Assembly (NCBI GenBank): GCA_020352495.1
Contig: CP070677.1
Span: forward strand, 1,975,418-2,039,417
Length of the DNA stretch: 64,000 nucleotides
DNA from: Candidatus Latescibacterota bacterium
Lineage (GTDB): Bacteria > Krumholzibacteriota > Krumholzibacteriia > WVZY01
Direction of reading: 5' to 3'
A model generated the notes under the pieces. It had not been told where the DNA came from. It made no database searches and saw only the letters and a program-made list of their open reading frames with translations. This document shows positions 38,570 to 56,019 of the stretch, piece after piece; position 1 is the first letter of the stretch, and each line of letters begins with the position of its first letter. Position numbers and translations under genes: made by a program.

Positions 38570-39050
38570 AGAAAAGCCTCCGAAGCTCCAGCAACTTAGC
38601 GACCGGCGAGCTCGCCTCGAGGAGCGGAAAAAATGGCTGAAAAGAGAGATGGGTCGTATTGAGAAAGAGATCGACGCGCTTCATGATCCGTTGCTTTCGC
38701 TTATGAGCGTTCATGGTCTCAAGAATCTCTCTTTAACGGATGGGATAACGATCTATCCGAAGACGGAGCTTTTTTGCTCGAAGATGCCGGAGGTTCCCGG
38801 AGAAGCCATCGTCGCCGCTCTACAAAAGCTCGGCTTGCCGTTCCTCTCGTACTCAACGGCAAAGGTTAAAGAATGGCTCAAGGAGCTTATCGACGAGGCT
38901 GTCGAGAACGGAGAGGCGGAGGCGTTGTTGACGGAAGGGCTTATCTCGGTCTTTCCGCCGGAGCTTCGAAGCATGTTCAAGGTACACGAAAAAACGAAGA
39001 CGGTTGTATTAGGCGCAAAAGCGGAGAAAGGAGCCGACTATCATGGATGA
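38562..39050 (+). CDS. Hypothetical coiled-coil protein
   Basis: The ATG overlaps the helicase stop. The ORF is 162 aa. Confidence 0.4.
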   Translation: MNEEKPPKLQQLSDRRARLEERKKWLKREMGRIEKEIDALHDPLLSLMSVHGLKNLSLTDGITIYPKTELFCSKMPEVPGEAIVAALQKLGLPFLSYSTAKVKEWLKELIDEAVENGEAEALLTEGLISVFPPELRSMFKVHEKTKTVVLGAKAEKGADYHG

Positions 39051-39819
39051 AAAGAAGGCGGTTGCAAAGGTCGAAAAAGGAGGGGCTCTCGCGCGGCAAA
39101 CGAAATTTGCCGCTCTTGATACTTCGCCGGATGAGGTCCGGAGCATTGTCGCGATGAACCTACAAGGGCGCAAGGTAAGCGCCTTCGACCTCGCGCGGAT
39201 CAAGGTTCCCGCCGGGGAAACGACTCACTGGTCGGTAAGAACGCTCGACGGTCCTCAAGCGCACGAGACGATCGAGGGGATCGTTCTTCATTCCCGCGAC
39301 CTTCGCGCGTTTTGGACGGAGCTCGATCCGACCGGCAAGCCTCCCGATTGCAAGTCGGACGATGGGCTTTCCGGGATGGGAGTTCGCTGGGCCGACGACG
39401 ATCCGACGAGCCCTCATGATTGCTCCCAATGCAAATGGGGGCAATTTGAATCGGACCCAAGGGGTAAGCGCGGGCAATATTGTAAGCAGATGCTCGCGAT
39501 CTTCATTCTCATGCCGGATACGTTTCTTCCGACGGTCATCTTCATGCCGCCGACGTCGATCAAGACAACGAGAGATTACCTTTATCGGATGGCGCATTTC
39601 GGCGTTTTACACTATTCGGCGGTGACTCGCTTCGCTCTTGCGCCGGACAAAAATCCGGACGGCAAGCCGTACAATCGGGTCGAATGCAGTCGGGGCGAAC
39701 AACTCAAAAAGGAGACGATCCCGAAGGTAAGGGCGTACATCGATCTCGTTCTTCCGAGCTTGAGCGCGGTCGAGATTACTTCGGATGATGTCGGGCCGGA
39801 CATCAAAGAGGAAGGCTAA
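39043..39819 (+). CDS. Hypothetical protein
   Basis: RBS GAAAGGAGCC. Cys cluster 'CSQCKWGQFESD...YCKQM'. Confidence 0.45.
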   Translation: MDEKKAVAKVEKGGALARQTKFAALDTSPDEVRSIVAMNLQGRKVSAFDLARIKVPAGETTHWSVRTLDGPQAHETIEGIVLHSRDLRAFWTELDPTGKPPDCKSDDGLSGMGVRWADDDPTSPHDCSQCKWGQFESDPRGKRGQYCKQMLAIFILMPDTFLPTVIFMPPTSIKTTRDYLYRMAHFGVLHYSAVTRFALAPDKNPDGKPYNRVECSRGEQLKKETIPKVRAYIDLVLPSLSAVEITSDDVGPDIKEEG

Positions 39820-39846
39820 CCCTTCCCATGACCGACTCTGTGACCT

Positions 39847-39880
39847 CCGGCGGGGCTCCTCGCCGGGGGTCTATTTTTTT
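39847..39880 (+). terminator. Intrinsic terminator
   Basis: Stem CCGGCG/CGCCGG followed by a run of seven T residues. Confidence 0.6.
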
Positions 39881-39900
39881 GGAAAGAGAAGAGGAAGAGG

Positions 39901-41949
39901 ATGTTAGAAGAGGCTCTAAGGCTTGTCCGTGCGGGGATAAGCGTTATACCGATTCGGACCGATGGGTCGAAAGGTCCGGCGATGGAGTCATGGGCTCCTT
40001 ACGTTCAACGGTTGCCGACCGAGGAGGAGCTTCGAGAATGGTTCAACCCGGATCGTCGGGAGCTTGGAATCGCTCATATTTGCGGAATGGTATCCGGCGG
40101 AACGTTCGTCATCGATTTCGAAGACAAAGATACTTTTCGACTTTGGGCGAGCCATGCAAAGGATGCTGTTCCGGATTGGGTCGAAAAGACTTGTACCGTC
40201 GAGACGCCTCGAGGCTACCATGTCCACCTTAAGATCGGCTTCGAGAAGCCCGGCGAGAAGCTCGCGCTTATACCGCAAAAGCGCAAGAAGGGCGAGGAGG
40301 TCGAGATCGTCGGTTACGCGATCATCGAATCTCGGGGGCAGGGACAATACGCAATCCTTCCCGGAAGTCCCGCCGAATGCCATCCGACTCAAATGCGTTA
40401 CGAGTACGTCGAGGGCGACCTCGCCGAGCTCGAGGCGATTGACCGCGAGGACTTCGAGATCCTCCTTCAAATCGCGCGGAGCTTCACGACATATAAGCCG
40501 GAGTCGAAGGGGCTCAAGCGGGGAGCTATCAAGGAAATCCCGAAGGACGATCAACGGCCAGGCACGGATTATTGCCTGCGGGGATCTTGGCCGGAACTCC
40601 TCGAGCGGCATGGTTGGACGTTGCTCCGGAAACATCCGGGGGGAAAAGAGATCTGGAAGCGGCCGGGAAAGACGGATCGCGGGGGGAGCGCAACGCTTGG
40701 CTTTGTCCTCACCGAGCTCGGTCAGGAGCTTTACGTCTTCTCTTGTAACGCCGCTCCCCTCGAGGAAGGTCGATGTTATAACCTATTCGCGGCGCGCGCG
40801 CTCCTTGATTTCGAGGGCGATTTCAAGAAAACTATCGAGGCGGTTATCGCCGAAGGATACGGCAAGTCGGCGAGCGAGCATTATCTTAAGCTTACGAAGA
40901 CCGCAATAGATATCGTTCGGGATAAGATCGCTCGGGGAGACGAGCTTTTCCCGGAGATCATGCAATCGGCGTTCTCCGGGGATGCGAAGTTCCAGCGGGT
41001 CTGGCAAAAGCGCCGAGCGGACTTTGGAACGTCTTGGAGTCGTTACGATGGTTCCTTGCTTTGGTACGCGCAAACCCATGGAGTTCAAGGGCATCAAATC
41101 GAGATCGGTGTCGGCATGGTTTACGCTTGGCGCAAGAAGCATTCCCTCTCCGTTGAGCCGGCGCTTGACATCAACTATATCGCTCGGAAGGTTCAATTTC
41201 TCGCCGAGAACGCTTCAAAGTCCGAGGACGAGGCTGTCGAAAGCCTCGAATTCGAGGCGCGGGGGGACGATTCAAACAATCACGTTAAAGCCGCTCAGGA
41301 GTACATCCATCCCGATTTTAGGGGGATCAAACAATACGGCGGGGATGCGACCGCGACGTTCCTCGTTACCTGGGCGGGCGACTATACGACGCGGATCTCG
41401 AGCATCCATGATCTTTGTACGGCGCAAACGTTCTGGGAGGCGGCTTTGACGACGGTTCCGAGTTTCACGGGCTTTGCCTCTCCGCTTTGCTTTAAGCCGC
41501 AAGTTTGGAGAAACAACATTATCCCGAGCCTCAAGGTCATCATCGTCGAGCTCGGTATCGAGGGCGTTGAAATCACCGAGGACAATCAAACCATGGAAAC
41601 GCTTTTCGATTACCTCGCTTCGGTTACGATCTATACCGAAGGCGGCGAGCGGGAAAGTTGGGATCAAGGTTTGATAAACAACGATCCGATCCAGCGTAAC
41701 GGAGCAATTGCCATCAACCTCATGAGTTTTATTCGTTGGGCGGACAAGTCGCGAGGGATCAAGATCAAGCGCCATCGGACATGGCCGATTCTCCGGGAGC
41801 GCGGCTTTCGGAAATGTACGATCACCGGAACGCCATCGGGAAAGAAGGAGCAGGCGAAGTATTGGGAAGTCTCGCTCAAGATTCTTAACGAGCAACGGAA
41901 AAGCCTTGCGTTCGATCAGCTCGAGGAACAGGCTAATGTTCCGTTTTGA
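39901..41949 (+). CDS. Bifunctional primase-polymerase (Prim-Pol) domain protein
   Basis: The N-terminus 'GISVIPIRTDGSKGP...ELGIAHICGMVSGGTFVIDFEDKD...VETPRGYHVHLKIG' matches the Prim-Pol catalytic signature. Confidence 0.7.
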   Translation: MLEEALRLVRAGISVIPIRTDGSKGPAMESWAPYVQRLPTEEELREWFNPDRRELGIAHICGMVSGGTFVIDFEDKDTFRLWASHAKDAVPDWVEKTCTVETPRGYHVHLKIGFEKPGEKLALIPQKRKKGEEVEIVGYAIIESRGQGQYAILPGSPAECHPTQMRYEYVEGDLAELEAIDREDFEILLQIARSFTTYKPESKGLKRGAIKEIPKDDQRPGTDYCLRGSWPELLERHGWTLLRKHPGGKEIWKRPGKTDRGGSATLGFVLTELGQELYVFSCNAAPLEEGRCYNLFAARALLDFEGDFKKTIEAVIAEGYGKSASEHYLKLTKTAIDIVRDKIARGDELFPEIMQSAFSGDAKFQRVWQKRRADFGTSWSRYDGSLLWYAQTHGVQGHQIEIGVGMVYAWRKKHSLSVEPALDINYIARKVQFLAENASKSEDEAVESLEFEARGDDSNNHVKAAQEYIHPDFRGIKQYGGDATATFLVTWAGDYTTRISSIHDLCTAQTFWEAALTTVPSFTGFASPLCFKPQVWRNNIIPSLKVIIVELGIEGVEITEDNQTMETLFDYLASVTIYTEGGERESWDQGLINNDPIQRNGAIAINLMSFIRWADKSRGIKIKRHRTWPILRERGFRKCTITGTPSGKKEQAKYWEVSLKILNEQRKSLAFDQLEEQANVPF

Positions 41950-41959
41950 GGAATAGGCT

Positions 41960-43567
41960 ATGAAAGAGTTTCGCGTTTTTGGTCCGCCGGGGACGGGAAA
42001 AACGACTTACCTCTCTAAGCAAATCAAGAGGGCTGTCGATAAGACCGATCAAATCATGGTCGCCTCGTTTACGCGCGCTGCGGCGATCGAGCTTACCGGC
42101 CGGGACTTACCGATCTCCAAGCATCGCATCGGTACGCTTCATTCATTTTGTTATCGGAGCTTGGGATATCCGGAGATCGCGGATACGCCGAAATGGTGCA
42201 AGAAATGGAACGAGCTATGGAGCAACCCGGAATGGAAGCTCTCCGGCTCGAAGACGAGCGTCGAAGACCCGTGGGGCTTCGATATCGTCCGCCGGTCGGA
42301 TGCCGACGCTTGGCTCCAAGAATACAGCCGGCTTCGAACGGCGCTTATCCCTCGAGAAAGATGGCGAAGCAAATCCGTGATTGCCTTCGCCGAGCATTGG
42401 GATGCTTGGAAGCGGGAGAACGATCTTCTCGATTTCACCGATCTTATTCTCGTTTGCCTCGAGAAGGTTCCGCGTCCGCCGTTCCACGTTGACATCGGCT
42501 TTTTCGACGAAGTTCAGGACTTCTCGCCGGCGGAATTGGCTCTCGTCCGGAAATGGGGCTCGACCTTCGAGCGATCGATCGTCCTCGCGGGGGACGACGA
42601 TCAAACGATTTACGCCTTCCGCGGGTCGGTCCCGGACGCTTTCCTCTTTCCGGGGCTCCCCGAGGATCATATCAAGATCCTGGGGCAAAGCTACCGGCTC
42701 CCTCGGGCGATCAAGAAGCTTGCCGACAAATGGATCCGGGGCGTCGAGCGACGCCAAGAGAAGCCGTTTGAGGCGCGAGACGAGCCTGGCTCGGTCTCGC
42801 CGATTCGCGGCAACGCGAGCATGGCGGGGGAGATCGTCAAAAAGGCTTACGAGCTCGCGGGCTCGGGAGAAAGCGTCATGATCCTCGGCTCTTGCTCTTT
42901 CATGCTCGAGTCGGCGATCTCGGCGATGAAGATGGAGGGGATCCCGTTCCATAATCCGTACCGACCGACGAACGGGGCGTGGAATCCTTGGCGCGGAGGG
43001 ATCGACCGGCTTCAAAACTTTCTTACCGACGATATCGAGCTTTGGGGGAACTTGACCAAGGAGCATACTTGGAAGTCGGTCTGGCGATGGTTTGAGCTTA
43101 TCAATACGAAAACGGCGAAGCCGAACCGGGGCGCGAAGCGTTACGTTAAGATGCTCGCGACCGACGACAAGTCCGCCGATGTTCCTTTGAAGCCGGAAGA
43201 CTGGGCGGAGCTCGGCATCAAGCCTCCGGAAGGGAATCTCGAATGGCTACAAAAACACATCCTCTCTCGGCATGAGTCTCTCATGGCGTTTCCCTTTCAA
43301 GTCGTCCGGAAGCGCGGGATTCGGGCGCTCGCGGAAAAGCCTCAGATCGTCGTCGGTACAATCCATAGTGTAAAAGGCGGGCAAGCGGAAAATGTAATCT
43401 TGCTCCCGGACATCTCCTATGCGGCCGAATGCGAGGTCGTCGAGAAGGGGAGGCCGCTCCGGGATGCGTTGCGAAGGCTTTGGTATGTCGGAGTAACAAG
43501 AGCGCGCCGGCGGCTCTTCGTCGCGGATGCGATGAATCCCGGGCGAACGGTACACGCAAACGTATAA
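41960..43567 (+). CDS. UvrD/Rep-like SF1 helicase
   Basis: Walker A 'GPPGTGKTT'; 'VLAGDDDQTIY' (UvrD motif); 'TIHSVKGGQAENVILL' (motif VI). Confidence 0.75.
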   Translation: MKEFRVFGPPGTGKTTYLSKQIKRAVDKTDQIMVASFTRAAAIELTGRDLPISKHRIGTLHSFCYRSLGYPEIADTPKWCKKWNELWSNPEWKLSGSKTSVEDPWGFDIVRRSDADAWLQEYSRLRTALIPRERWRSKSVIAFAEHWDAWKRENDLLDFTDLILVCLEKVPRPPFHVDIGFFDEVQDFSPAELALVRKWGSTFERSIVLAGDDDQTIYAFRGSVPDAFLFPGLPEDHIKILGQSYRLPRAIKKLADKWIRGVERRQEKPFEARDEPGSVSPIRGNASMAGEIVKKAYELAGSGESVMILGSCSFMLESAISAMKMEGIPFHNPYRPTNGAWNPWRGGIDRLQNFLTDDIELWGNLTKEHTWKSVWRWFELINTKTAKPNRGAKRYVKMLATDDKSADVPLKPEDWAELGIKPPEGNLEWLQKHILSRHESLMAFPFQVVRKRGIRALAEKPQIVVGTIHSVKGGQAENVILLPDISYAAECEVVEKGRPLRDALRRLWYVGVTRARRRLFVADAMNPGRTVHANV

Positions 43568-43581
43568 GAAAGGAGTCGATC

Positions 43582-43803
43582 ATGTCAAGAATCCTCGGGC
43601 CGGACGAGAAGCCCGTACACGAGCCGACGGAGCCAAAAATCAACATTGGCTTCATGCCAGAGAAGGGGCTTCTTACCTTGCAAGTCGGCGGCGGCGAGCG
43701 GGTCGGCGTTCCTTGGTTGCAGGGACTTGCAATCGCTTACAAGATAATCGGAATGATTACGGGTTATCTCGTGAAAGTTCAAAACGGAATGGAGCAGTCA
43801 TGA
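43582..43803 (+). CDS. Small hypothetical protein
   Basis: RBS AGGAG. The ORF is 74 aa. Confidence 0.4.
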   Translation: MSRILGPDEKPVHEPTEPKINIGFMPEKGLLTLQVGGGERVGVPWLQGLAIAYKIIGMITGYLVKVQNGMEQS

Positions 43804-43937: not shown

Positions 43938-44466
43938 GAAGCTCGCTGATCGAATTCTTCTCGAAGTTCATCGGGAACAGCGAGCGCTTATCGCGGAAGC
44001 CTTGATGACTCATACCTCGGCGTTGATCGAGACGCTTCGCGGATTGCGAAACGAAGATCGCGAGCTTACCGGGAATTGGGATCGGGTTACGCTTCCTCGT
44101 CGCATTCTTGAGGCGATCGAAGATGGGAAGTCATCTGGTCTTTGGATCCTTCTAAAGCGCAACGCCGCGACCGAAGCTTTAGGATCGACGAAGTTCAACG
44201 TTTCCAAAGCATCATCTCTTTTGGATATAAGTCGACGGACGATGCATCTTTGGGCGAAGGAATTCCATTTGACTAAGGAAGGATTGAATGGCTATGAGAC
44301 CGAAGAGAAGGTCCGACCGTGGCGCGATCAAGAGCGCGATTTGGTTATCGTTCTTCTCAAAAAATACGAGGGAGATCATGAGATCATCTCGAAGCGGATG
44401 GGGATCGAGCCGAAAACGTTGAGGAGCAAAATCGCTTATTACAATCTTCGAAATTTTCGAACTTGA
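43876..44466 (+). CDS. Putative helix-turn-helix (HTH) DNA-binding regulator
   Basis: Fis-like HTH 'NVSKASSLLDISRRTMHLWAKEF'. The start is uncertain because it overlaps the upstream ORF. Confidence 0.45.
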   Translation: MALEAISIPRCFIDEIGALLEKLADRILLEVHREQRALIAEALMTHTSALIETLRGLRNEDRELTGNWDRVTLPRRILEAIEDGKSSGLWILLKRNAATEALGSTKFNVSKASSLLDISRRTMHLWAKEFHLTKEGLNGYETEEKVRPWRDQERDLVIVLLKKYEGDHEIISKRMGIEPKTLRSKIAYYNLRNFRT

Positions 44467-44832: not shown

Positions 44833-44877
44833 CGCCGGTCTCTCGGATAACACGCGCTTCCGAGAGCCGGCTTTTTT
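44833..44877 (+). terminator. Intrinsic terminator
   Basis: Stem GCCGGTCTCTCGG/CCGAGAGCCGGC followed by a run of seven T residues. Confidence 0.75.
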
Positions 44878-44971
44878 TGATGATCCCGCAAAAACTCGCC
44901 GCCGTAAGTCTCGATTTATGACAGATTAAGGACTTACGATCAAAAAATCCGCATTTTTTCGAAATTGGGGA

Positions 44972-45000: not shown

Positions 45001-45227
45001 AACAGAAGAGTTGAGCGAGACTCGACTCGAGCTCTTTGAAAAAAAGTTTTCGACCGCGCGGCCCTACAGGGAAACCCAGGGGAAGCTTAGTTCGGGCGGT
45101 AAGCGAGGGACGGCGAAAGCGCCTCGGGTCGAGAAGGTTGATCACCTTAGATCAGGAGACTGGGGGAGCCGCCGAGAAAGGGCTCTCCCACCAAAACTCA
45201 AGCAACCCTAACCGAAAGGACCTAACC

Positions 45228-45509
45228 ATGAGTAACGCAATTCGAGTCGTCAACGAGAGCACCGGAAAGCGGTTCTTCGTAACAAGCCTCCTCAAGGCGC
45301 AAGCTTATCGGGACAAGCACGAGGGCGAGCTCGTCGCCTTCTATTCGGTCAACCATTCGGACGCAAGCCAAGAGGTACTCCTCGGCGAGAGTGCGGCGCG
45401 GTTCAACGAAAGAGAGGAGCGAAAGGAGCGAGCCAAGAAGCGTTATCCGGTACGGCGGAAGGACGGAAGAATCGTCAACGTTACGATACCCGAAGACGAG
45501 AGGAACTAA
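45228..45509 (+). CDS. Hypothetical protein
   Basis: Preceded by 'CAACCCTAACCGAAAGGACC'. Confidence 0.45.
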   Translation: MSNAIRVVNESTGKRFFVTSLLKAQAYRDKHEGELVAFYSVNHSDASQEVLLGESAARFNEREERKERAKKRYPVRRKDGRIVNVTIPEDERN

Positions 45510-45719: not shown

Positions 45720-45736
45720 CCCGAAAGGAGCCGATC

Positions 45737-45997
45737 ATGGCTACGCCTAACCTCACAATCGTCTTTGTCGTTCTCGAGTCTTGTATTCAACCTTCCGGCG
45801 CTTACTCGCGCGTCCGGGGGCGCTTCTCCTCTCAAGAGAAGGCGGTCGAACATACCAGCGCGATCGATTGGATCGGGCCGGAGTTCGGGATTCAGCGCGA
45901 CCGCGAGATGGTCGTCTATCAACGGACGACATACGCGCAAACCGGCAAGACCCTTCGCCGGAGAGTTTACCGACGTCCGCTCGGGCGGGACCTTTAA
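45737..45997 (+). CDS. Hypothetical protein
   Basis: RBS CCGAAAGGAGCC. Confidence 0.45.
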   Translation: MATPNLTIVFVVLESCIQPSGAYSRVRGRFSSQEKAVEHTSAIDWIGPEFGIQRDREMVVYQRTTYAQTGKTLRRRVYRRPLGRDL

Positions 45998-46065
45998 GGT
46001 CCCGGGAGCCGGCGGTCCTCCCCAAAGACCGTCACCAAAAGCAACCCTAACCGAAAGGAGCCGTC

Positions 46066-46788
46066 ATGCGTAAACTTACAACCCGGAAAGGCCGAAGCGT
46101 CGACACGCCGTTTTCAAACGAAGAAGCGCTCGCGAGACTTCGCGAGATGTACGCCGAGGGGCGCGCCGGGAGGTTCGGCGCAGACCTCGTTCGCAAGTCG
46201 GCGGAGCACGGGCTTTCCGTCGATCAGATGACTTGGGTACATATCCTCGTCGTCGAAGCCGAAGAGCCGAAGCGGACGGTTAAGCTCGAGGCGATCGTCA
46301 GAGTTCTCCAGCGCGCTCGAGACAACGGCCTTAAGCATCCCAAGGTTCGCCTCTCTTGGGGCAACGGAGAGCCGCTCGCGCTCTCCCTGGCCGGCGAGCG
46401 GTCGCGTTACCCGGGAACGGTCAACGTTACCGACGGCGGATCGTACGGCAATAATCGCTGGTTCGGGCGGATCGAGCTCGACGGCGATTACTCGCCTCGC
46501 CGAGGCGTGCCGGCCGAGGTCGTCGAAGCGCTCGAGAAGTTCAACGCCGCTCCAGCCGAGACTGGATCCTTACACGGGCGATTGACCGGCCGATGTTGCT
46601 TTTGCGGCCGGGACCTCGAGACGAAAGAATCGGTCGGCGTCGGATACGGGCCGGTTTGCGCCGATCGCTACGGGCTCCCTTGGGGCCGAGTCGATCTCTA
46701 TCAACTCAAGAAGGACAAAGCGATCGAGGTCGAGTCGACTAAGGTCGACGTCAAAGCGGATCGCGCGATCGAAGTCGAAGCGGCATGA
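46066..46788 (+). CDS. Hypothetical protein with C-terminal CxxC...C motif
   Basis: RBS CCGAAAGGAGCC. 'GRCCFCGRDL...GYGPVCADRYG'. Confidence 0.5.
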   Translation: MRKLTTRKGRSVDTPFSNEEALARLREMYAEGRAGRFGADLVRKSAEHGLSVDQMTWVHILVVEAEEPKRTVKLEAIVRVLQRARDNGLKHPKVRLSWGNGEPLALSLAGERSRYPGTVNVTDGGSYGNNRWFGRIELDGDYSPRRGVPAEVVEALEKFNAAPAETGSLHGRLTGRCCFCGRDLETKESVGVGYGPVCADRYGLPWGRVDLYQLKKDKAIEVESTKVDVKADRAIEVEAA

Positions 46789-46883
46789 AGGATCGGGGCT
46801 CTCGAGGGAAGAATGGGCCAATGCCGGAGTCGTTACAGGTTTCGGGACCTCGGGAGCCTTTTTAGATACGAAAGGAGCCAAGA

Positions 46884-47447: not shown

Positions 47448-47978
47448 ATGGAAGCCTTCGAAGATCCAAATAGCGAAGGCAATTCTTCGAAGCACCAGAC
47501 CGGCGAGACTTGTATCGAGCCGGGTTGCGACGGGCCGGCGGGGACCGCATGGTCGCCATATTGGTGTCAACCTTGTAACGCCGAGCGGATACGGCGGATA
47601 ACAAAGCAACTAACCGAGATTGGAGAAGCCATGAGAGTACAAATTAAGAAGCCGATCGAGGATGCCTCAGATCGGGCGGATAGATGGAATCAATACCGGC
47701 GGGACCTCGATCATGCGAAGGCGGTTCTCGACGACGAGCATAGGACCGAGTTCAAGGATCCGGCGGAGGAGCTCAAGGCAAACCTACGGGCGGCGGCAAC
47801 AGAAGGGAGACTCGAGGCCGCAGGGCGGGCGGACGTTCAACTCGGAGCGGTAATCGAGATCGTCTATACCTTGAAACACGCAATCGAGGAATATTGCGAC
47901 GACGAGACAATCAAGAAAATCGAGGCTTATTACGAAGATTGTATGGCGACACCGACCAAGAAAGGAGCCAAGCCATGA
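47448..47978 (+). CDS. Hypothetical protein (CxxC...CxxC)
   Basis: 'CIEPGCDGP...CQPCNAE'. Confidence 0.45.
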   Translation: MEAFEDPNSEGNSSKHQTGETCIEPGCDGPAGTAWSPYWCQPCNAERIRRITKQLTEIGEAMRVQIKKPIEDASDRADRWNQYRRDLDHAKAVLDDEHRTEFKDPAEELKANLRAAATEGRLEAAGRADVQLGAVIEIVYTLKHAIEEYCDDETIKKIEAYYEDCMATPTKKGAKP

Positions 47979-49141
47979 CAAGCTACAACGTTACTCGCGG
48001 CGGTAAGAAAGGCGGAATGACCCTTCAGGAACTCGCGGCGGAGGTAACCCGGCGGCAAAAGGAGAAGCGCGATTTTTACGCTCCGGCGAATAAGCTTCAA
48101 ATCGCGACGCAACTCCCCGACGGGGATGGCGTCCGGAGACAAGCGCTTCACATCGAAGGGATCGACGCCGGACCGTTCACGCTCGACCATCTCGCGCTCC
48201 GGCAAATCGGGACACACCTCGACGTCCCGGCGAAGTTCGCCGACCGGCTCCGGGAGAAGGAGCCCGACCTTCATGACAATCTCTTTAACGAGCTCCTCCG
48301 GCGCAACCGGGTAAAGAATGATATTCCGGTGCGGCTCGTTCGGACCCTCGACGGGCGGGCGCGGGCCTTCCTCTCCGACTCGTATCAGATCAGGGATAAC
48401 TTCGATCTTCTCGAGGGAATCCTTCCGGCGCTCGGCGAGCTTCCGTTCGGCTCGGAGATCTTTTCGACGAGCATTACCGACCGGAAGCTTTACCTCGAGG
48501 TAACCTTCCCGGGGCTCGAGCTCGACATTCAGGATTTTGTCGACCCTTCGGTTCATCGTCGTCCAAACCGAGGCGAGCCGGACATTCTCCGGAGCGGCTT
48601 CGCCTTGAGCAATTCTGAGGTCGGCCTCGGACGGATCGAGGTCAAGCCGTTCCTCGAGCGGCTCATTTGCATCAACGGCGTCGTCGTCTCCGAGGCGCTC
48701 TTCAGGAGCGCTCACGTCGGTCGTAAGACTTCTCGGGATGATGTCGAGATCTGGGAGGTATTGTCCGACGAAGCCAAGAAGGCGGACGATGGGGCGTTCA
48801 TGCTCAAGGTTCGGGACGTTGTGATGAGCATGGCCGAAAAGACGAAATTCGAAACCGTCGTCCGGCGGATGGCCGAGGCTTCCGGCGAGAAGATCGAGAA
48901 ACCGGCCGACAAGGCCGTCGAGGAGCTTGCCAATCAATTTACCTTGACCGAGGGAGAGAGCGGCGGTATTTTGAACCATCTTATCGAAGGCGGCGAGTTG
49001 ACGCGCTACGGGCTGATGAACGCCGTAACGCGGGCGGCTCAGGACGTCGGAGATTACGACCGAGCGATGGAGCTCGAAGCCCTCGGGGGCAAGATCATCA
49101 ACCTCCCGCGGTCGTCTTGGCAGGCGGTTGCGGCAAAGTAG
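47975..49141 (+). CDS. Hypothetical protein
   Basis: ATGA overlap. RBS GAAAGGAGCC. The ORF is 388 aa. Confidence 0.5.
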   Translation: MTSYNVTRGGKKGGMTLQELAAEVTRRQKEKRDFYAPANKLQIATQLPDGDGVRRQALHIEGIDAGPFTLDHLALRQIGTHLDVPAKFADRLREKEPDLHDNLFNELLRRNRVKNDIPVRLVRTLDGRARAFLSDSYQIRDNFDLLEGILPALGELPFGSEIFSTSITDRKLYLEVTFPGLELDIQDFVDPSVHRRPNRGEPDILRSGFALSNSEVGLGRIEVKPFLERLICINGVVVSEALFRSAHVGRKTSRDDVEIWEVLSDEAKKADDGAFMLKVRDVVMSMAEKTKFETVVRRMAEASGEKIEKPADKAVEELANQFTLTEGESGGILNHLIEGGELTRYGLMNAVTRAAQDVGDYDRAMELEALGGKIINLPRSSWQAVAAK

Positions 49142-49155
49142 GAAAGGAGCAAGAG

Positions 49156-49413
49156 ATGACCGTCTCGGAAGCAAGGACTCTCGTAAGGCTGGTGGAACGC
49201 CGCGACGCGATGACCGCTCTCCTCGCCGAAGACCTCGAAGAAAAGATCGCCGTCGAGATTGCGATCGAAGGACAAGCGCATGAGGAGCTTATTACTTGGC
49301 TCGAAGATCAAGGCCGGGCTGCGGTCGCTGCGGCCTTCGAGTCTTGGCTACAGAGCAAGGTTACCGCGATCGACGTACAGTTGACGAATCTTGGAGTCGA
49401 GGGGCTTTCATAG
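49156..49413 (+). CDS. Hypothetical protein
   Basis: RBS GGAAAGGAGC. Confidence 0.45.
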   Translation: MTVSEARTLVRLVERRDAMTALLAEDLEEKIAVEIAIEGQAHEELITWLEDQGRAAVAAAFESWLQSKVTAIDVQLTNLGVEGLS

Positions 49414-49791: not shown

Positions 49792-49819
49792 CGATAAAGC
49801 AAATAGCGGGAGGCTCGAG

Positions 49820-50728: not shown

Positions 50729-50982
50729 GCGAACACGACTTTTGCCGAACCTTCTTGACGCAAGTCATGGGAGACGTCCGCAAGCTTACGACGGCGGAGG
50801 AGCGCAAGAAGTCTTGGGCCTATCGGGATTCGATGGGCAACGTCGAGTTTCACGGGCCGGGCGGCTTCTATTGGCATGGGCGCGGATGTTGCAAATGGTA
50901 CGCGCAAGCGGAAGGTTGGATCGCCTGGCTTGAAAAACAGAAAGGAGCCGAAGATGGCGGAGATTCGCGGGAAGATGGATGA
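50725..50982 (+). CDS. Hypothetical protein
   Basis: ATGA overlap. Confidence 0.4.
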   Translation: MSEHDFCRTFLTQVMGDVRKLTTAEERKKSWAYRDSMGNVEFHGPGGFYWHGRGCCKWYAQAEGWIAWLEKQKGAEDGGDSREDG

Positions 50983-51190
50983 AGCCGAGAAACACGTTTG
51001 CGAAATGTTGCGGATGGCCATTTCGACGGGCCTCCGGCATGGCGTTACGCTTCGAGGAAATCGCCTCTCGGTACGATGGAACGACTATACCACGAGTCCC
51101 GATCCGGGAGGGGATCTCGTCGGCGTCGACATGTTGATCCTCAACGTTGTAACCGGGGACGAGGAAGAAGAGCGTCCCGAAACCAAGTAA
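50954..51190 (+). CDS. Hypothetical protein
   Basis: RBS GAAAGGAGCC. Confidence 0.4.
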   Translation: MAEIRGKMDEAEKHVCEMLRMAISTGLRHGVTLRGNRLSVRWNDYTTSPDPGGDLVGVDMLILNVVTGDEEEERPETK

Positions 51191-51206
51191 TCGAAAGGAG
51201 CCGAAG

Positions 51207-51731
51207 ATGCCAACGAAAAGGAACACGAAAAGGAACACGAAAGTCGCAAAGAAGCTCGTAACGCTTAAGCCTGAAGCGCTTGGCGATTCGCAAACCGAGA
51301 TGTTTGTTAGCAAGATTCTCGGGAAGAAATGGAAGCCCGAAGGCTTCGAGCTTTATCCAGGAACGTACGAGGTCAAAGCGCGAATTCAGCTCGAGGTCGA
51401 GGGGATTCTTCAAAAAGTTGGCGATCATGAATATACGCCAACGGTAGACATTCCCCTAAAGGCGACCTTGGCGCTCTTGCTCCAGCGGATGGGGATAGGC
51501 CGGGAAGCCGCGATGGAAGTCCTCGCCGAATGCATGAGCGAAGCGATCGAGGCCGGCGAAAAGGGCGCGGAGTTTCTCAAGGAAAAGACCAAAGACGTTG
51601 AGATCGCCATGGCGCGGGTTACGGCAACGGCGAAGAAGCTTCCGAAGAAGACTCGTAAGGGCGCGCTCAAAGTCATCCACGGGAAGGTCAAAGTCTCCGC
51701 GCTTCAGGGCGGATCGGTACAAGTCGACTGA
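51207..51731 (+). CDS. Hypothetical protein
   Basis: RBS CGAAAGGAGCC. A terminator follows. Confidence 0.5.
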   Translation: MPTKRNTKRNTKVAKKLVTLKPEALGDSQTEMFVSKILGKKWKPEGFELYPGTYEVKARIQLEVEGILQKVGDHEYTPTVDIPLKATLALLLQRMGIGREAAMEVLAECMSEAIEAGEKGAEFLKEKTKDVEIAMARVTATAKKLPKKTRKGALKVIHGKVKVSALQGGSVQVD

Positions 51732-51761
51732 TCGGCGGAAGGCTCTTTCTTCTTCTTGAGC

Positions 51762-51788
51762 TCGTCGAGTTCGACGAGGAGCTTTTTG
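51762..51788 (+). terminator. Intrinsic terminator
   Basis: Stem CTCGTCG/CGACGAG followed by a T-rich tail. Confidence 0.6.
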
Positions 51789-52128
51789 ACGGTCTCCTGA
51801 AGCCGGCGGCATTCTCTAACGAGCGTCCGATAGCATATTTGACAAGATGGGCAAACGAAGTCGCGGGTCTCGTTACGCAACGGTCATCTCCTTGGCAATA
51901 GGCCGACCTCGGAGCCCGCGACTCCTTCTTTTCTCCCTTTCACCAAAGGGAATCCGAACGCCGGAAGCCGACTCTTCTTCATGGTTCTCGCCTAAAGTCT
52001 ATCACGGCGGTTGGGTTATCTCCTCGGGATTTTCATTTAACTTTCCCTTGAGTTCCTCAACATTTCGGGTACTTTAGGCTCCGGTGAATTGACTTTTTTT
52101 GACTTTTCTTCATCTTCTCTACAACGTC

Positions 52129-52155
52129 GCTCCCATCCGGGAGCCTCCTTTTTTT
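52129..52155 (+). terminator. Intrinsic terminator
   Basis: Stem GCTCCC/GGGAGC followed by a run of seven T residues. Confidence 0.55.
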
Positions 52156-52157
52156 GG

Positions 52158-52185
52158 TTGACGCCATGGCTTCATTTGCTACACT
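52158..52185 (+). promoter_or_regulatory. Sigma70-type promoter (leaderless ATG)
   Basis: TTGACG, 16-nt spacer, TACACT, then 6 nt to the ATG. Confidence 0.5.
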
Positions 52186-52191
52186 GAAGCC

Positions 52192-52524
52192 ATGGCTGAT
52201 TTTCAATTCTCGATTACGGTTACCGGGAAAAGTCCCGAGGGGCTCTTCGTTGAGCTTCCCGAGGGGGCGGACTTCGAACTCGCCGGCTTGGGTACAATTA
52301 TAATCCCATTCCTGATTCGCTCTCAAATGAGCGAAGAGGTTTCGCTTCGGCTTTCGCGCGAAGTCGAGGGACCGTCGAAGGATAAGGCTACGGTTTCGAT
52401 CTTCGCCGATTCCATGGTCATACCTCCGGGCGCGAGGCTCTCAAATCACTTGACCGTCGAGGCTAACGAAGCCTTCGGCGAGGGAGACGAGATTTCGATC
52501 GAGGTCTCCGGGGAGGCGACATGA
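52192..52524 (+). CDS. Hypothetical protein (possibly leaderless)
   Basis: The ATG is 6 nt after a TACACT -10 element. Confidence 0.4.
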   Translation: MADFQFSITVTGKSPEGLFVELPEGADFELAGLGTIIIPFLIRSQMSEEVSLRLSREVEGPSKDKATVSIFADSMVIPPGARLSNHLTVEANEAFGEGDEISIEVSGEAT

Positions 52525-53117
52525 GGCTTTTCAGCGATTCTGCGGCCGAGTCGGTTTCCGGCTTCATCCGCGCGGTAATCGGGCTCCTCGCGGTTCCCGT
52601 CCGCGAAATGCACCGGACGATCGGGCATTCGACCGTCTCGGGGGCGCTCCTTCTTGCGCTCGGGGCGATCGGCGCAACGATCGCGTACCAAGTCACGAGC
52701 TCCGACCTCACGAGCGAGGCTTGGAAGGCGCTCAAGCGCGAGAGGCTTGCCCGGGCGGCGGTTTACGAGGCTCAGGCCGCGGAGGCCGGGAAGGACATAC
52801 AGGGGCGCACATGGGCGCTCTCGGCGATCCGCGCGGACTCCGCCGGCGTCCATCTCAAGTTCCCGCCGATCGCCGGCGCTACCCATCTTCAGATCGGTTG
52901 GCGAACGACGAAAAGCAACGGCCTCGAAACCTTTGAGATTCCACAGCCGGCGGAGGGGGAGCCGACGGCGCTCTTTTATGAAGTTACCGTAACAAAAGAG
53001 GCGGTCGGATCAGCTTGGGAGTCCGGAGCTCGCTTTACGATCGAGGCCGAGCAACGGTTCCCGGACGGCGGGCGCGCGAGATTAGACGGAAGGAACGATG
53101 CTGTAACCCTACCTTGA
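52521..53117 (+). CDS. Hypothetical membrane protein
   Basis: ATGA overlap. Two hydrophobic helices. Confidence 0.45.
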   Translation: MRLFSDSAAESVSGFIRAVIGLLAVPVREMHRTIGHSTVSGALLLALGAIGATIAYQVTSSDLTSEAWKALKRERLARAAVYEAQAAEAGKDIQGRTWALSAIRADSAGVHLKFPPIAGATHLQIGWRTTKSNGLETFEIPQPAEGEPTALFYEVTVTKEAVGSAWESGARFTIEAEQRFPDGGRARLDGRNDAVTLP

Positions 53118-53169
53118 GACGCAAACAACAAGCCTCGGGGGGTTTAGGCTTTGGTCTGGCGGAGGACCA

Positions 53170-53200
53170 CGGCTCCTTTCGGCCTCTCGGGGCTTTTTTT
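53170..53200 (+). terminator. Putative terminator
   Basis: A GC-rich region followed by a run of seven T residues. The hairpin is not cleanly resolved. Confidence 0.35.
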
Positions 53201-53201
53201 C

Positions 53202-53230
53202 TTGACGTCGCGCCCTCAGTTTTGTAATAT
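53202..53230 (+). promoter_or_regulatory. Sigma70-type promoter
   Basis: TTGACG, 17-nt spacer, TAATAT. The leader is about 100 nt long and contains a stem-loop. Confidence 0.65.
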
Positions 53231-53329
53231 CACTGAGTCTTGATTTCCCGGAGCGGCCGAGGCGCTCTTTAGGGTTGCTTCCTTGCGCGCTCGGCCGTTC
53301 CCTTTTCTACAAAACGAAAGGAGCCATCG

Positions 53330-53662
53330 ATGGCGCGAATGAAACGAATGCCCGTAACGTTGCAACTCTCGACCGAGATCAATTACCGGACGCTCGACGA
53401 GCTTGTTAAGCGGCTTGGGAGGGTTACGTTCGAACTCTCCGGAGCCGTCGGGAAGCTCGACGGGATCCCGGGTGTCTCCTCTCCCAAGTTCGACATCAAG
53501 CGGGGGCTTCGGGCGGCAAAGGGCGCTGTTGAGGCTTCGGAGGAGAACGAGGAGGAAGATGGCCGCTCCGAAGAAGATAACGAAGAAACACAATTCGAGG
53601 AAGGTACATCAATGCAAGACGTGCGGGAGGAGGATTCGGGGGCCGACGTTCTTCAAACATAG
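53330..53662 (+). CDS. Hypothetical acidic protein
   Basis: RBS CGAAAGGAGCC. Confidence 0.45.
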   Translation: MARMKRMPVTLQLSTEINYRTLDELVKRLGRVTFELSGAVGKLDGIPGVSSPKFDIKRGLRAAKGAVEASEENEEEDGRSEEDNEETQFEEGTSMQDVREEDSGADVLQT

Positions 53663-53834
53663 GCGAGTATGCGAGTCGCAAACCGGGAGCATGTCTCACA
53701 TCTATCCAATCAAAATCGATTCCCGTCTTTACCGATCTTGGCGGTTGATCCTCTCTCTTAAGAAGGAGACAATCCGCGAGGCGTTGATTCGCCTGATTAC
53801 CGCCGAAGTACAAAACGAAAGGAGCAACAAATGA
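53559..53834 (+). CDS. Possible overlapping small zinc-ribbon protein
   Basis: An alternative frame overlaps the 3' end of the ORF at 53330. 'HQCKTCGRRIRGPTFFKHRRVC'. Confidence 0.3.
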   Translation: MAAPKKITKKHNSRKVHQCKTCGRRIRGPTFFKHRRVCESQTGSMSHIYPIKIDSRLYRSWRLILSLKKETIREALIRLITAEVQNERSNK

Positions 53835-54559
53835 GACGTTACTGGGACTTATCAGAACGAGAGCGAGCCGAGCTCAATTCGGAAGAGATCGAAAACTTTC
53901 GGCAAGTTGAACTCATGGAAAAGGGGCTCGTCGTTCCGGAGAAACCGAAAGGTATTGAGCTCGAAGATGTCTCGGTCGAGAGCGTAAAATTCTACGTTAT
54001 AAGTTACGTTGGGAGGTACTCCCATTCCGAAGATTTGGGCATTGCTTTTTCATGCCCGGAGGATGCCGAGGCGTTTCTCGCGCTTCGTCCTCGGTTCGTA
54101 GATTACGACACCGCAATCGGCAGCGACTATAAGACCTCAACGCCGCTCGATCATAGAGAGCCGCCGTCGATCAAACCGATTGGACTTTTCCCCAAGGATA
54201 AGCTCGATTCGGTCAAAGAAGCGCTCCGGAGCAATAAGAAGAAAAAGGAGGCACATCGCGACGCATCCAATGCGTATCAAAGAAAGCTCCAAGAGATTTA
54301 CAAAGAAAGCGAAGCGATCATCAGCGATTGGCATCAATGCATAGAGAAGCGGGAGGCGGTCAAGAGCCTTCTCCGGACGTGGAACCGTTACGTCGAGCTC
54401 GCCGAAGGAGATGAAGCCATCGCGGGGCGCTTTCTTGCGAAGGCGTATGAGCGCGAAGAAATTCAGGATGCTTTCGCATGGGAGCGGCTTGGATTGCCCG
54501 ATGGGCTCTTCGAAGAGGAAAGCAAAGGAGAAGAAGAATGCGATACGTTTACTTCATAG
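53831..54559 (+). CDS. Hypothetical protein
   Basis: RBS CGAAAGGAGC. Confidence 0.5.
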   Translation: MRRYWDLSERERAELNSEEIENFRQVELMEKGLVVPEKPKGIELEDVSVESVKFYVISYVGRYSHSEDLGIAFSCPEDAEAFLALRPRFVDYDTAIGSDYKTSTPLDHREPPSIKPIGLFPKDKLDSVKEALRSNKKKKEAHRDASNAYQRKLQEIYKESEAIISDWHQCIEKREAVKSLLRTWNRYVELAEGDEAIAGRFLAKAYEREEIQDAFAWERLGLPDGLFEEESKGEEECDTFTS

Positions 54560-55062
54560 ACAAAAGGTTCGGAGATAATACCTTCGAGCGACATATTCTC
54601 TATCCCCTCGAGGGTCCCGGCGAGTCGATCGTTTACGAGGACGATGGGCCTATCAAGACGAACGTTGCCTGCGTCTTTTTGGCGAAAGATCCGATGGCCG
54701 TCGACCCGGACTCAATTACGGTCTATAGCCAAGAGCGCGAGCCGGCCTTCCGGCTTTTCAACAAGATTCGTATGATCTTCGAGCATTGCTCCGCCAACGT
54801 TATCGCGATTTCTCATATCATCGACGAGCTCGACCTTCCGCCGTCGACGCATCAGCAACCTCCCCGACCGCGGACCGGCTCTTATACGCCTCCGCAGAAC
54901 GTTGTAACGACGCCTCCTCCGCCGACGAGCCTTTCGGAGTCAACAAACGATCGGCCCAAGGCGACGACGACGACGCCTCCGCCGAATGTTGAACCATCGC
55001 CGAGCGCCCTCCGTCATGGTCGAACGTCCGACGAACCTCGCGAAAAGGACTGGATGGGATAA
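54538..55062 (+). CDS. Hypothetical protein with Pro/Thr-rich C-terminus
   Basis: An internal ATG overlaps the upstream stop. Confidence 0.4.
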   Translation: MRYVYFIDKRFGDNTFERHILYPLEGPGESIVYEDDGPIKTNVACVFLAKDPMAVDPDSITVYSQEREPAFRLFNKIRMIFEHCSANVIAISHIIDELDLPPSTHQQPPRPRTGSYTPPQNVVTTPPPPTSLSESTNDRPKATTTTPPPNVEPSPSALRHGRTSDEPREKDWMG

Positions 55063-55148
55063 AGGAGGATGCGAAGACGGAAGAAAGGAAAATTAAAGTT
55101 CAACCGGGACCTTGCCGGACTTGCATCCATTGGAAGGAGGTCGAAGGC

Positions 55149-55295
55149 TTGAAAGTTTGCGACCTCGCCAGGCATATCGGTAAAGGGAAATACGTCGACC
55201 GGCACCTCCCCTATCCATGGCCGAACACCGGGCCGGATTACGAATGTTGGCTTTGGAAGAGAAAGCTCGGCGATCCCGGAGAGGCGAAAGAATGA
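55149..55295 (+). CDS. Possible unlisted small Cys-rich ORF (TTG start)
   Basis: GGAAGGAGG lies 8 nt upstream of a TTG start codon. The stop overlaps the next ATG as ATGA. Confidence 0.25.
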   Translation: MKVCDLARHIGKGKYVDRHLPYPWPNTGPDYECWLWKRKLGDPGEAKE

Positions 55296-55762
55296 GCCTC
55301 GAGGACTTCCGTTGTTACGAGCGAATAAGTACGCTCGAAGCACCGAACTTTGCGACCTTTATCATGGGCGCTTTGTCGACCGCCGATTCGACCGAGCATC
55401 TTTCCGTCCTCGTTCAAGCCTTTCCCGAAATTTGGGCTGAGTTTTCTATACGTTACAACGCTCCCTGGGGCACGATTGATATCTCCGAGCTCCGGAAGGA
55501 GTCCGTCGACCGGGGCCTCGCTCTATCCAAGGAAGACGAATCTGCGGCTTTAGAGAAGATCGTCGAGGCGCGCGAGCTCGCCGAGCAAAGCACCGGAGAT
55601 CTTTTTAGCGAGCCTCCGCCGGAGTTCAATCCCAAGCCGGAGAAGTCTTCGGCGGAGACCCTCGCCGAGGACATGCAAACCATGAGCGAATGGATGAAGG
55701 AAGATAAGGCCGAAGATTTTGTCGGCGACCTTATCGACATTGTAAAGGAGGACAATGAGTAA
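55292..55762 (+). CDS. Hypothetical acidic protein
   Basis: The ATG is at 55292. Confidence 0.45.
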   Translation: MSLEDFRCYERISTLEAPNFATFIMGALSTADSTEHLSVLVQAFPEIWAEFSIRYNAPWGTIDISELRKESVDRGLALSKEDESAALEKIVEARELAEQSTGDLFSEPPPEFNPKPEKSSAETLAEDMQTMSEWMKEDKAEDFVGDLIDIVKEDNE

Positions 55763-55991
55763 CGAAGGATTCAAGCGATACCTCGGCGACGGCGTTTACG
55801 CCGATTACGACGGTTACCACATCGTTTTGACGACGGAGAATGGAATCACGACAACGAATACGATAGCTCTCGAGCCGCCGGTTATGGAGGCGCTCAAAAG
55901 GTACGAAAAGCGTCTCAGCGAAATCGTATCAGCAAGGCGGGCGGAAGAAGAAGGGAAGGAGGAAGAGCCGTCCGGCGAAAGCGAAGGTTAA
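55755..55991 (+). CDS. Hypothetical protein
   Basis: The ORF is 78 aa. Confidence 0.4.
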   Translation: MSNEGFKRYLGDGVYADYDGYHIVLTTENGITTTNTIALEPPVMEALKRYEKRLSEIVSARRAEEEGKEEEPSGESEG

Positions 55992-56019
55992 GCAACCCAA
56001 AACCGAAAGGAGCCAAAAG

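Follow-up and report, generated by a model that had tools for sequence, protein, structure and literature searches.

The DNA analyzed here is a 64,000-nt window from a metagenome-assembled genome (MAG) of a Candidatus Latescibacterota bacterium, and all coordinates are positions in this window. Its early genes share a short repeated ribosome-binding element built around the 8-nt core GAAAGGAG, which is referred to below as the start cassette. Since the encoded Prim-Pol is 100% identical to a protein on a 4.3-Mb contig from a MAG labeled 'Candidatus Latescibacterota bacterium' (NCBI locus tags JSW58_...), the window was assigned to a prophage, and judged from its sequence this prophage is siphovirus-like. 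The phage genes lie nearly all on the + strand. They comprise structural genes (minor head protein, major tail protein, and tape measure) and an early block, in which genes for an SNF2 helicase, Prim-Pol, and a UvrD-like helicase precede many small ORFans; a Fis-type helix-turn-helix (HTH) protein is encoded at 44005-44466. The cassette is restricted to the replication and small-gene block and lies outside the structural genes.

The exact 11-mer CGAAAGGAGCC occurred seven times in the window, compared with 0.14 expected from dinucleotide-preserving shuffles, and 0 of 100 shuffles reached seven. Six of the matches lie on the + strand before the ATG codons at 45737, 46066, 46884, 51207, 53330, and 56020, and the seventh lies on the − strand at 53171-53181 with no associated gene. 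The core GAAAGGAG was found 14 times on the + strand, where 5.0 copies were expected for both strands, and 12 of these 14 end 5-9 nt before the ATG of an open reading frame (ORF) of 73-388 aa. A thirteenth site, before ATG 45228, carries the variant CGAAAGGACCT, in agreement with its listing as a near-variant in the initial annotation, and all 13 starts are ATG. The form GAAAGGAGCC is present at nine sites. On the + strand, GAAAGGAG was absent before 38292 and after 56012, and the gene-associated sites all fall within 39-56 kb, so that the claim that the motif is missing from the structural genes was borne out. The initial annotation had further described 11 identical 11-mers. Identity holds at six sites, while the others differ in the first base (A or G) or at the end (GCA or GTC): A replaces the first C at 39043, 47975, and 50954, the site at 53831 ends in GCA, and that at 49156 combines a first G with a final GCA. 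It had overlooked the site before ATG 43582 (AGAAAGGAGTC). The positions of the sites and of the associated elements are collected in Table 1.

Table 1. Start cassettes, their reverse-complement copies, and adjoining elements in the window
Feature	Position	Strand	Context
Cassette AGAAAGGAGCC	39025..39035	+	7 nt before ATG 39043 (258 aa, phrog_23155); inside the 3' end of the upstream ORF
Cassette AGAAAGGAGTC	43567..43577	+	Before ATG 43582 (73 aa); abuts the TAA stop of the UvrD-like helicase gene
Prefix AAGCAACCCTAACC and variant cassette GAAAGGACCT	45200..45223	+	Before ATG 45228 (93 aa)
Exact cassette CGAAAGGAGCC	45722..45732	+	Before ATG 45737 (86 aa); upstream TAA 2 nt 5' of the motif
Prefix AAGCAACCCTAACC and exact cassette	46039..46062	+	Before ATG 46066 (240 aa, DUF6011)
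Exact cassette	46869..46879	+	Before ATG 46884 (79 aa); directly after terminator-like GGGAGCCTTTTT
Degenerate prefix and cassette copy AAGCAACTAACCGAGATTGGAGAAGCC	47604..47630	+	Before ATG 47631
Cassette AGAAAGGAGCC	47959..47969	+	Before ATG 47975 (388 aa, DUF932-like); inside the 3' end of the upstream ORF
Cassette GGAAAGGAGCA	49141..49151	+	Before ATG 49156 (85 aa); overlapped by the upstream TAG stop
Cassette AGAAAGGAGCC	50939..50949	+	Before ATG 50954 (78 aa); 17-mer GAAAGGAGCCGAAGATG same as at the next gene
Exact cassette	51192..51202	+	Before ATG 51207 (174 aa)
Exact cassette	53315..53325	+	Before ATG 53330 (110 aa)
Cassette CGAAAGGAGCA	53816..53826	+	Before ATG 53831 (242 aa)
Prefix variant AAGCAACCCAAAACC and exact cassette	55990..56014	+	Before ATG 56020 (311 aa, phrog_4285 transposase-like); upstream TAA within the prefix
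Anti-cassette ACGGCTCCTTTCGG	53169..53182	+	Reverse complement of CCGAAAGGAGCCGT; in a terminator-like hairpin in the 3' untranslated region (UTR) of gene 52521-53117
Long terminator-like hairpin and T-run	53130..53200	+	Encloses the anti-cassette
Sigma-70-like promoter TTGACG-17-TAATAT	53202..53230	+	Consensus match only
GC-rich hairpin, then UUCCCUUUUCU	53250..53301	+	Loop region holds TTAGGGTTGCTT; candidate attenuator or small RNA

Paralogy of the 13 cassette genes was rejected, with a best pairwise BLASTP E-value of 0.059 among their proteins. Reading GGAGCC/GGCTCC as a general terminator-stem word was uninformative, since both words are similarly enriched across the window (each about 1.7- to 1.9-fold).

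For the flank statistics, the 12 core-bearing sites were aligned on GAAAGGAG. The first base after GGAG is C at 11 of the 12 sites (p = 3.6e-6) and the second is C at 10 (p = 5.7e-5), followed by a purine at all 12 (G at six) and by A at eight (p = 1.7e-3). On the 5' side, the base before the core is C at seven sites (p = 0.018), a weak conservation, and leader positions −7 to −2 are A-rich with G almost absent. Among the 23 other genes of the window with GGAG in their Shine-Dalgarno (SD) sequence, the base after GGAG is G in 13, A in seven, C in two, and T in one. Because these genes carry mostly G or A, the CC is a property of the cassette class of sites and not of the genome.

The canonical 3' tail of 16S rRNA is CUCCUUUC, and the anti-SD sequence lies within this 3' end. 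The core GAAAGGAG complements the last eight bases of the canonical 3' end, while the two following C residues are unable to pair with it. Together with the spacing of 5-9 nt and the uniform use of ATG, this complementarity supported the annotated identity of the core as an SD sequence. The accompanying statement that the flanking C residues are not explained by anti-SD pairing holds for the 3' CC, which is conserved and non-pairing, but the 5' C is not strongly conserved. As SD sequences, the late genes have GGAGG, GGAGGT, and GAGGTGA, and the host anti-SD sequence is therefore canonical, ...UCACCUCCUUUC...; an altered host anti-SD (GGCUCC for CCUCC) was rejected in view of the GGAGGT and GAGGTGA sites. 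The G at +3 and the A at +4 are the bases expected in the continued complement GGAGGUGAUC, a pattern in the sequence that suggests a possible split SD with a 2-nt mismatch. At 45722-45736 and 43567-43581, GAAAGGAG(C/T)CGATC forms a 14-nt complement of GAUCACCUCCUUUC except for two central bases. The predicted opening energy of the start regions was 6.0 kcal/mol for the cassette genes and 8.5 kcal/mol for 39 other genes (Mann-Whitney p = 0.016). The leaders, G-poor and in these fold models less structured than those of other genes, would be in keeping with an enhancer-like role.

An A/C-rich direct box of 12-14 nt, the prefix AAGCAACCCTAACC, adjoins the cassette at two sites in exact and at two in degenerate form. 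The 21-mer AAGCAACCCTAACCGAAAGGA is identical at 21 of 21 positions at 45200 and 46039, upstream of genes 45228 and 46066, while the copy at 55990 has one extra base and that at 47604 is degenerate. Of the three sites annotated with a longer leader, two are thus exact and one is a one-indel variant, and the coordinates first assigned to them were a few nucleotides off. Neither an inverted-repeat pair nor promoter-like hexamers were found at the prefix sites. The box is found in + orientation at 45200 and 46039 and in − orientation at 53280.

At five cassette sites, the stop codon of the upstream gene touches or overlaps the motif or its prefix; two sites are inside the 3' end of the upstream ORF. 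Most sites lie 14-28 nt past the upstream stop or within the upstream ORF; upstream gaps of 68-212 nt were found only at 46066, 46884, and 53330, and the sites at 45228 and, depending on the gene call, 53831 possibly lie in long gaps too. With stop codons abutting or overlapping the motif, or the site inside an ORF, most copies are therefore internal operon ribosome-binding sites and not promoter-proximal leaders. The motif was rejected as a promoter component in the window, where promoter-like hexamers lie near only one or two cassette sites. Sigma-70-like promoters were noted at 44463 (TTGACC-16-TATAAT), 52158, and 53202, and the T-run of a terminator passes directly into a TTGAC −35 box repeatedly, at 44856-44880, 52078-52102, 52133-52157, and 53181-53207. 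On these sequence features, the early region seems to be divided into several short transcription units.

Relatives of the prophage proved to be distant. Megablast against a collection of phage records gave no match, leaving the window without DNA similarity to known phages; single-protein scans of IMG/VR yielded no close relatives, and a PrimPol profile scan of GTDB genomes found no relatives. The relatives reached were distant phage contigs only, with Prim-Pol proteins 30-39% identical, and they have the gene order SNF2 / HTH / DUF7307 / Prim-Pol / UvrD in common with the window. Their source contigs are logan SRR22452304_69125 and SRR14699982_23153, JGI Ga0255052_10000297, and ENA ERZ25073603 NODE_321 and ERZ27250355 k141_2252330. 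The small-gene block of each relative has its own repeated cassette with the common core and its own 3' flank, namely GAAAGGAGCACAACGATG in contig L001, (C)GAAAGGAGACAAGCATG in L004, AAGGAGCCGACCATG in L006, and CAAGGAGACAGGYATG in L002. Orthologues of the window genes 51207, 47975, 39043, and 43582 bear the version of the local genome, as do the epimerase genes of L001 and L006, and for 51207 the orthologues in L001, L004, and L006 each have their own genome's version. The identity of the 6 nt after GGAG was 0.56 within genomes and 0.39 between genomes, a difference reached in 0 of 2000 label permutations. Across six phages, the second base after GGAG is C at about 80% of the cassette sites. 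In the window, identity extends beyond the core, with the 21-mer described above and a 17-mer common to the neighboring genes 50954 and 51207 (sites 50940 and 51193). The likeness of flanks within each genome and the identity beyond the core therefore indicate concerted evolution of a short start cassette. From the sequences, this could have been caused either by copying between sites or by co-evolution with a genome-specific partner.

Some cassette copies of L001 and L004 lie about 20 nt after TATAAT, and promoter plus leader are repeated in L001, L004, and L137. The last of these came from a search with homologues of 51207, which led to other, unrelated phages (L132-L138) and not to further orthologous intergenic regions. 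Among these unrelated contigs, L133, L134, and L137 each have their own start cassette. L133 has a CCCGCC hairpin arm and an A/C-rich tract (a C/A-rich prefix) followed by CCGAAAGGAAC; L134 has AGGAGTCGAAAC at 10-11 genes, often about 12 nt past TATAGT; and L137 has repeated promoter-leader units with GCATGTACCAGAGAAGGGACGG leaders. A pattern scan of IMG/VR for CGAAAGGAGCC-N3-5-ATG listed at least 120 stretches with one match each; none of those listed had clustered matches, and no relatives were obtained. Single copies of the 11-mer before an ATG are therefore common. The small-gene region of L002 also contains, at 19362-20860, a TnpB / Cas12f1-like_TNB gene of the IS605 type.

The reading we prefer, to which we assign an about even chance, is that the motif is a standardized, strong, and weakly structured ribosome-binding cassette that acts in cis and is kept uniform within each phage by copying. 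By analogy, and with comparable reserve, the cassette of the 13 unrelated early or middle prophage genes may be a new example, in a very distant phage, of the kind known as start-associated sequences (SAS) in mycobacteriophages. The position, spacing, complementarity, and conservation of the motif, the lower predicted structure, the non-paralogy of the genes, the restriction to one region, and the genome-specific flanks on orthologues are the observations behind the cis-acting cassette. In the proposed mechanism, the 8-nt GAAAGGAG would pair with the extreme 3' end of 16S rRNA (CUCCUUUC) 5-9 nt before the ATG, and the G-poor, A/C-rich, and weakly folded leader would allow independent ribosome loading on each cistron of the packed operons. 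The two C residues after GGAG would terminate the SD/anti-SD helix at 8 bp and would set the cassette class apart from the GGAGG-type sites of the structural genes. Near-identity would arise as recombination or gene conversion copies and pastes short start regions from one early gene to another, and the outcome would be a cassette version specific to each phage. We infer that the cassette raises or equalizes translation and that copying, not a trans-acting partner, keeps it uniform.

Several points weigh against this proposal. Simple 'helix capping' gives no reason for a preference of C over the A found in other genes, and it leaves the +2 C at about 80% of the sites in six phages without an explanation. 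The predicted structures differ modestly (p = 0.016), and no mechanism has been demonstrated for the copying of 15- to 25-nt segments. Moreover, the cassette has significant antisense copies in the window and in L001 and L006, and these point to an additional regulatory layer that a model acting only in cis does not predict.

The antisense copies of the window lie in the 212-nt gap 53118-53329 between gene 52521-53117 and gene 53330, which holds reverse complements of both the motif and the prefix. The anti-cassette ACGGCTCCTTTCGG is the reverse complement of CCGAAAGGAGCCGT at 46066 over 14 of 14 positions and of six cassettes over 11 of 11. About 90 nt further downstream, past the promoter-like TTGACG-17-TAATAT, TTAGGGTTGCTT (53269-53280) is the exact 12-nt reverse complement of the prefix AAGCAACCCTAA (the "CAACCCTAA" prefix). 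In the predicted fold, a strong GC hairpin has this anti-prefix in its loop region, where a part of it forms a weak 4-bp inner stem, and the minimum free energy of 53232-53335 is −44.6 kcal/mol (z-score −2.9). The two segments (14 + 12) cover 26 contiguous nucleotides of the 46066 leader (46039-46064). This antisense score of 26 was the maximum of 1204 sliding 212-nt windows, the next best being 20. Neither Rfam families, at the gathering score, nor tRNA genes were found anywhere in the window.

In a cross-genome control with whole 20-kb loci, exact antisense matches of 10-13 nt arose by chance. Therefore, the antisense test was restricted to intergenic DNA, in which the longest match to the genome's own cassette start regions was compared with shuffles, and the antisense case rests on position, contiguity, and co-variation. 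The longest match was 14 nt in the window (0 of 300 shuffles), 12 nt in L001 (p = 0.007), and 11 nt in L006 (p = 0.013), while L002 and L004 reached only 8 nt each, which was not significant. The copies of L001 and L006 complement their own flanks (CATCGTTGTGCC with GGCACAACGATG and TGGTCGGCTCC with GGAGCCGACCA) and lie directly 5' of an intrinsic terminator; a promoter and a cassette gene come next. The two gaps, at 16080-16260 in L001 and 18123-18330 in L006 upstream of the 51207 orthologue, are homologous and run through an anti-start segment, the terminator, TTTTTTTATGGAATT, the promoter, and the cassette gene. Folding predictions for the read-through RNA of both contigs place the anti-motif in an 11-bp helix with the downstream start region, at a pair probability of about 1. 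This long-range helix covers the SD sequence or the start codon, and the pairing sequences differ between L001 and L006. According to these models, the start site would be hidden on read-through transcripts and not on transcripts from its own promoter.

In the window, pairing of the anti-cassette with the downstream start region is predicted to be 12.7 kcal/mol less favorable than the local hairpins, which speaks against masking in cis. Because of this cost, the window element, if functional, is more likely trans-acting. When the whole window was scanned for duplexes, the top two partners of 53165-53184 were the cassette sites of 46066 and 45737, and the loop of the second hairpin (53250-53301) ranked the 46066 leader fourth. 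The cofolding free energy difference (ddG) was −9.5 for 46066 and −9.7 for 51207, compared with a mean of −0.8 for other genes. Thermodynamic prediction thus lends modest support to pairing in trans. Elsewhere in the window, CCTTTCTTGGTCGG at 30176-30189, inside the coding sequence of a giant ORF, matches the start region of gene 47975 in reverse complement over 14 nt without a mismatch; about 0.06 such 14-nt matches are expected by chance.

These copies suggest that antisense control of the cassette genes is plausible, and a broader explanation of the motif can be built on them. It holds that the non-SD flanks and the A/C-rich prefix are addresses for phage-encoded, same-strand antisense RNA elements. 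The 3' UTR hairpin 53130-53200 would carry ACGGCUCCUUUCGG, the hairpin 53250-53301 would carry UUAGGGUUGCUU in its loop region, and both would pair with the cassette starts, best with that of 46066, so as to block or time translation either in trans (one-to-many) or in cis on read-through transcripts. The result would be a one-to-many post-transcriptional regulon that switches a block of early genes, with the non-SD bases specifying the pairing and co-evolving in each phage. The window-wide maximum of the 26-nt match, the significant intergenic matches to the own flank of each genome (5' of the terminator or, in the window, inside it), the predicted start-masking helices, and the duplex and cofolding results all speak for this explanation, and the c4 RNA of phages P1 and P7 offers a precedent. 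On the other hand, L002 and L004 are without a significant copy, 10- to 13-nt matches occur by chance in whole loci, the anti-cassette of the window is buried in a stable hairpin, the second hairpin ranks its supposed target only fourth, Rfam gave no match in the window, and the copies could be relics of an inverted leader duplication. We consider this explanation possible but on the whole unlikely.

A second alternative, to which we attach a still smaller probability, is that the extended motif is an mRNA binding or cleavage site for a phage or host protein, which may be a translational repressor or activator or a RegB-like endoribonuclease that would inactivate early messages at their SD sequences. 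The conservation reaching 3' of GGAG (CC, purine, A) is consistent with such a site, as are the limitation of the motif to the early region and the genome-specific flanks, which are expected under co-evolution with a factor; RegB with S1, which cut the SD sequences of early genes, is a precedent. Scans of about 30 early proteins against Pfam and PHROGs revealed no RegB, RegA, or other RNA-binding or RNase domain, a weak negative, since most of these proteins are ORFans and the scans covered only part of the window's ORFs. The RegB consensus 3' of GGA is A-rich and not CC, and the spacer variants common to pairs of sites fit copying better than site recognition.

It is also improbable that the sites are only ordinary strong SD sequences whose flank conservation is a by-product of A/C-rich leaders and small numbers. 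The leaders are indeed generally A/C-rich and poor in G and T, and single copies of the 11-mer before an ATG are common, as at least 120 unrelated viral stretches showed. However, CC at 10 of 12 sites is unlikely even if only A or C were allowed, the base after GGAG differs sharply from that in other window genes, sites have identical 17- to 21-mers in common, and the flanks are genome-specific (0 of 2000 permutations). Finally, we regard as very improbable an action at the DNA level, in which the motif would be an asymmetric operator for the prophage repressor or another regulator, like the 'stoperators' of cluster A mycobacteriophages, and the prefix a second protein-binding site usable in either orientation: the sites are asymmetric, co-oriented with transcription, and between genes, copies of the prefix box point in either direction, the window encodes a Fis-type HTH protein (44005-44466), and DNA-binding proteins were favored by Pope et al. 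for the extended SAS (ESAS), but an operator does not need a perfect 8-nt SD sequence at 5-9 nt from an ATG, a geometry that argues for a role at the RNA level, some sites lie inside the 3' ends of upstream ORFs, the sites have no dyad symmetry, and most have no promoter-like sequences upstream.

Several repeats of the window were recorded outside the cassette sites. At 57647-58500, at least 14 copies of a unit of about 36 nt (GARCGAGTC ... GAGAAAACCG ...) are arranged head-to-tail in a stretch with broken ORFs, and the excess of A over T near these repeats is very high, with an AT skew of 0.36 at 58-60 kb. This array could be iteron- or origin-like or a decayed 12-aa coding repeat. Tandem repeats of 36 nt (12 aa) rich in CAATCGACGACG occur at 7055-10646 and 28467-31410 within two giant ORFs of about 1500 aa and about 2940 aa, and the 10-mer CAATCGACGA occurs 52 times on the + strand of the window.

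Among known systems, the PeSL elements of T4-type phages, units of an early promoter and a stem-loop that Arbiol et al. reportedly described in 2010 as mobile regulatory cassettes and that presumably spread by recombination, resemble the window cassettes: both are repeated regulatory units of small size that stand between short early genes where the genome is plastic. Unlike PeSL, the window unit is a ribosome-binding site, mostly without a promoter. The c4 RNA of P1 and P7 regulates the icd-ant genes of the immI operon as an antisense RNA made from the same strand; Citron and Schuster are said to have described it as such in 1990. Through two short segments it pairs with a ribosome-binding region elsewhere on the phage transcripts, and related phages have different pairing sequences. 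The CI RNA of satellite P4 is a similar same-strand antisense RNA, and Rfam has a C4 antisense RNA family. The candidate of the window would likewise be a same-strand small antisense element with two short segments complementary to a start region. It differs from c4 in having no Rfam match in the window, many potential targets instead of one, and antisense segments placed in a terminator hairpin and a leader hairpin.

T4 RegB together with S1 recognizes GGA and about 8 nt downstream (an 11-nt site) and cuts GGAG in the SD sequences of early genes (PMC1702504). The window motif is similarly centered on the SD sequence, extended, specific to early genes, and informative 3' of GGA, and by analogy it may offer a route to switch off early messages. 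It differs in that its 3' consensus is CC, where that of RegB is A-rich, and in that no RegB homologue was found in the about 30 early window proteins scanned.

The closest parallel is the SAS of the cluster K mycobacteriophages, a 13-bp asymmetric sequence GGGATAGGAGCCC (≤2 mismatches) present in 11-19 copies, 3-8 nt before mostly ATG starts, in the non-structural arm only and in one orientation (PMC3203893). Its conserved bases include a 3' C run unable to pair with 16S rRNA, it is associated with upstream intergenic gaps >50 bp, and about half of the copies are preceded by an ESAS, which consists of an imperfect 17-bp inverted-repeat pair and a putative promoter; one inverted copy without a gene occurs in four K1 phages (PMC3203893). 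Pope et al. favored DNA-binding proteins for the ESAS (PMC3203893), and the function of SAS was still called ill-defined in 2024 and 2025 (PMC11373665, PMC12699233). In the K1 phage Anaya (JF704106, our locus L130), we found the single inverted SAS, CCUCCUAUCC, on the + strand at 39871-39883 of the locus (about 59870-59882 of the record). There it makes up the 10-nt loop of a hairpin with a GCGCGG/CCGCGC stem; this hairpin lies past a terminator, in the 385 nt of non-coding sequence that separate gp96 from gp97. This parallel to the antisense element of the window is suggestive only, since the hairpin alone is not significant (z −1.6) and the K1 phages are closely related to each other.

Like SAS, the window cassette is an asymmetric motif of 11-13 nt around an SD core, present in many copies (12 sites and one variant) a few nucleotides before ATG codons, in the non-structural region and in a single orientation. 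Both have conserved non-pairing 3' C residues, with AGGAGCC in common, an extra upstream element at a subset of sites, and one inverted copy without a gene. The differences lie in the sequence, (C/A)GAAAGGAGCC as against GGGATAGGAGCCC, in the host, which belongs to another phylum and carries an unrelated phage, and in the context, since most window sites lie 14-28 nt after the upstream gene or overlap it whereas SAS goes with gaps >50 bp. Unlike the ESAS, the upstream element of the window is a 12- to 14-nt A/C-rich direct box with neither a 17-bp inverted-repeat pair nor a promoter, and unlike SAS, the 3' flank of the window-type cassette differs between related phages. By these comparisons, the window cassette is a functional analogue of SAS and not a member by descent. 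Motifs of the SAS type have been known since 2011, and an independent example now comes from an unrelated phage of an uncultured phylum. If the cassettes are only copied strong ribosome-binding sites, they still mark true start codons and the early gene block in metagenomic phages. The co-varying antisense copies beside terminators lead to a concrete hypothesis, the masking of a shared start site by RNA-RNA pairing, and if that hypothesis is true, the same logic could explain the SAS of the cluster K mycobacteriophages. Considered side by side, the two systems raise the prospect that standardized early-gene start cassettes may be a more general phage design and not a mycobacteriophage oddity.

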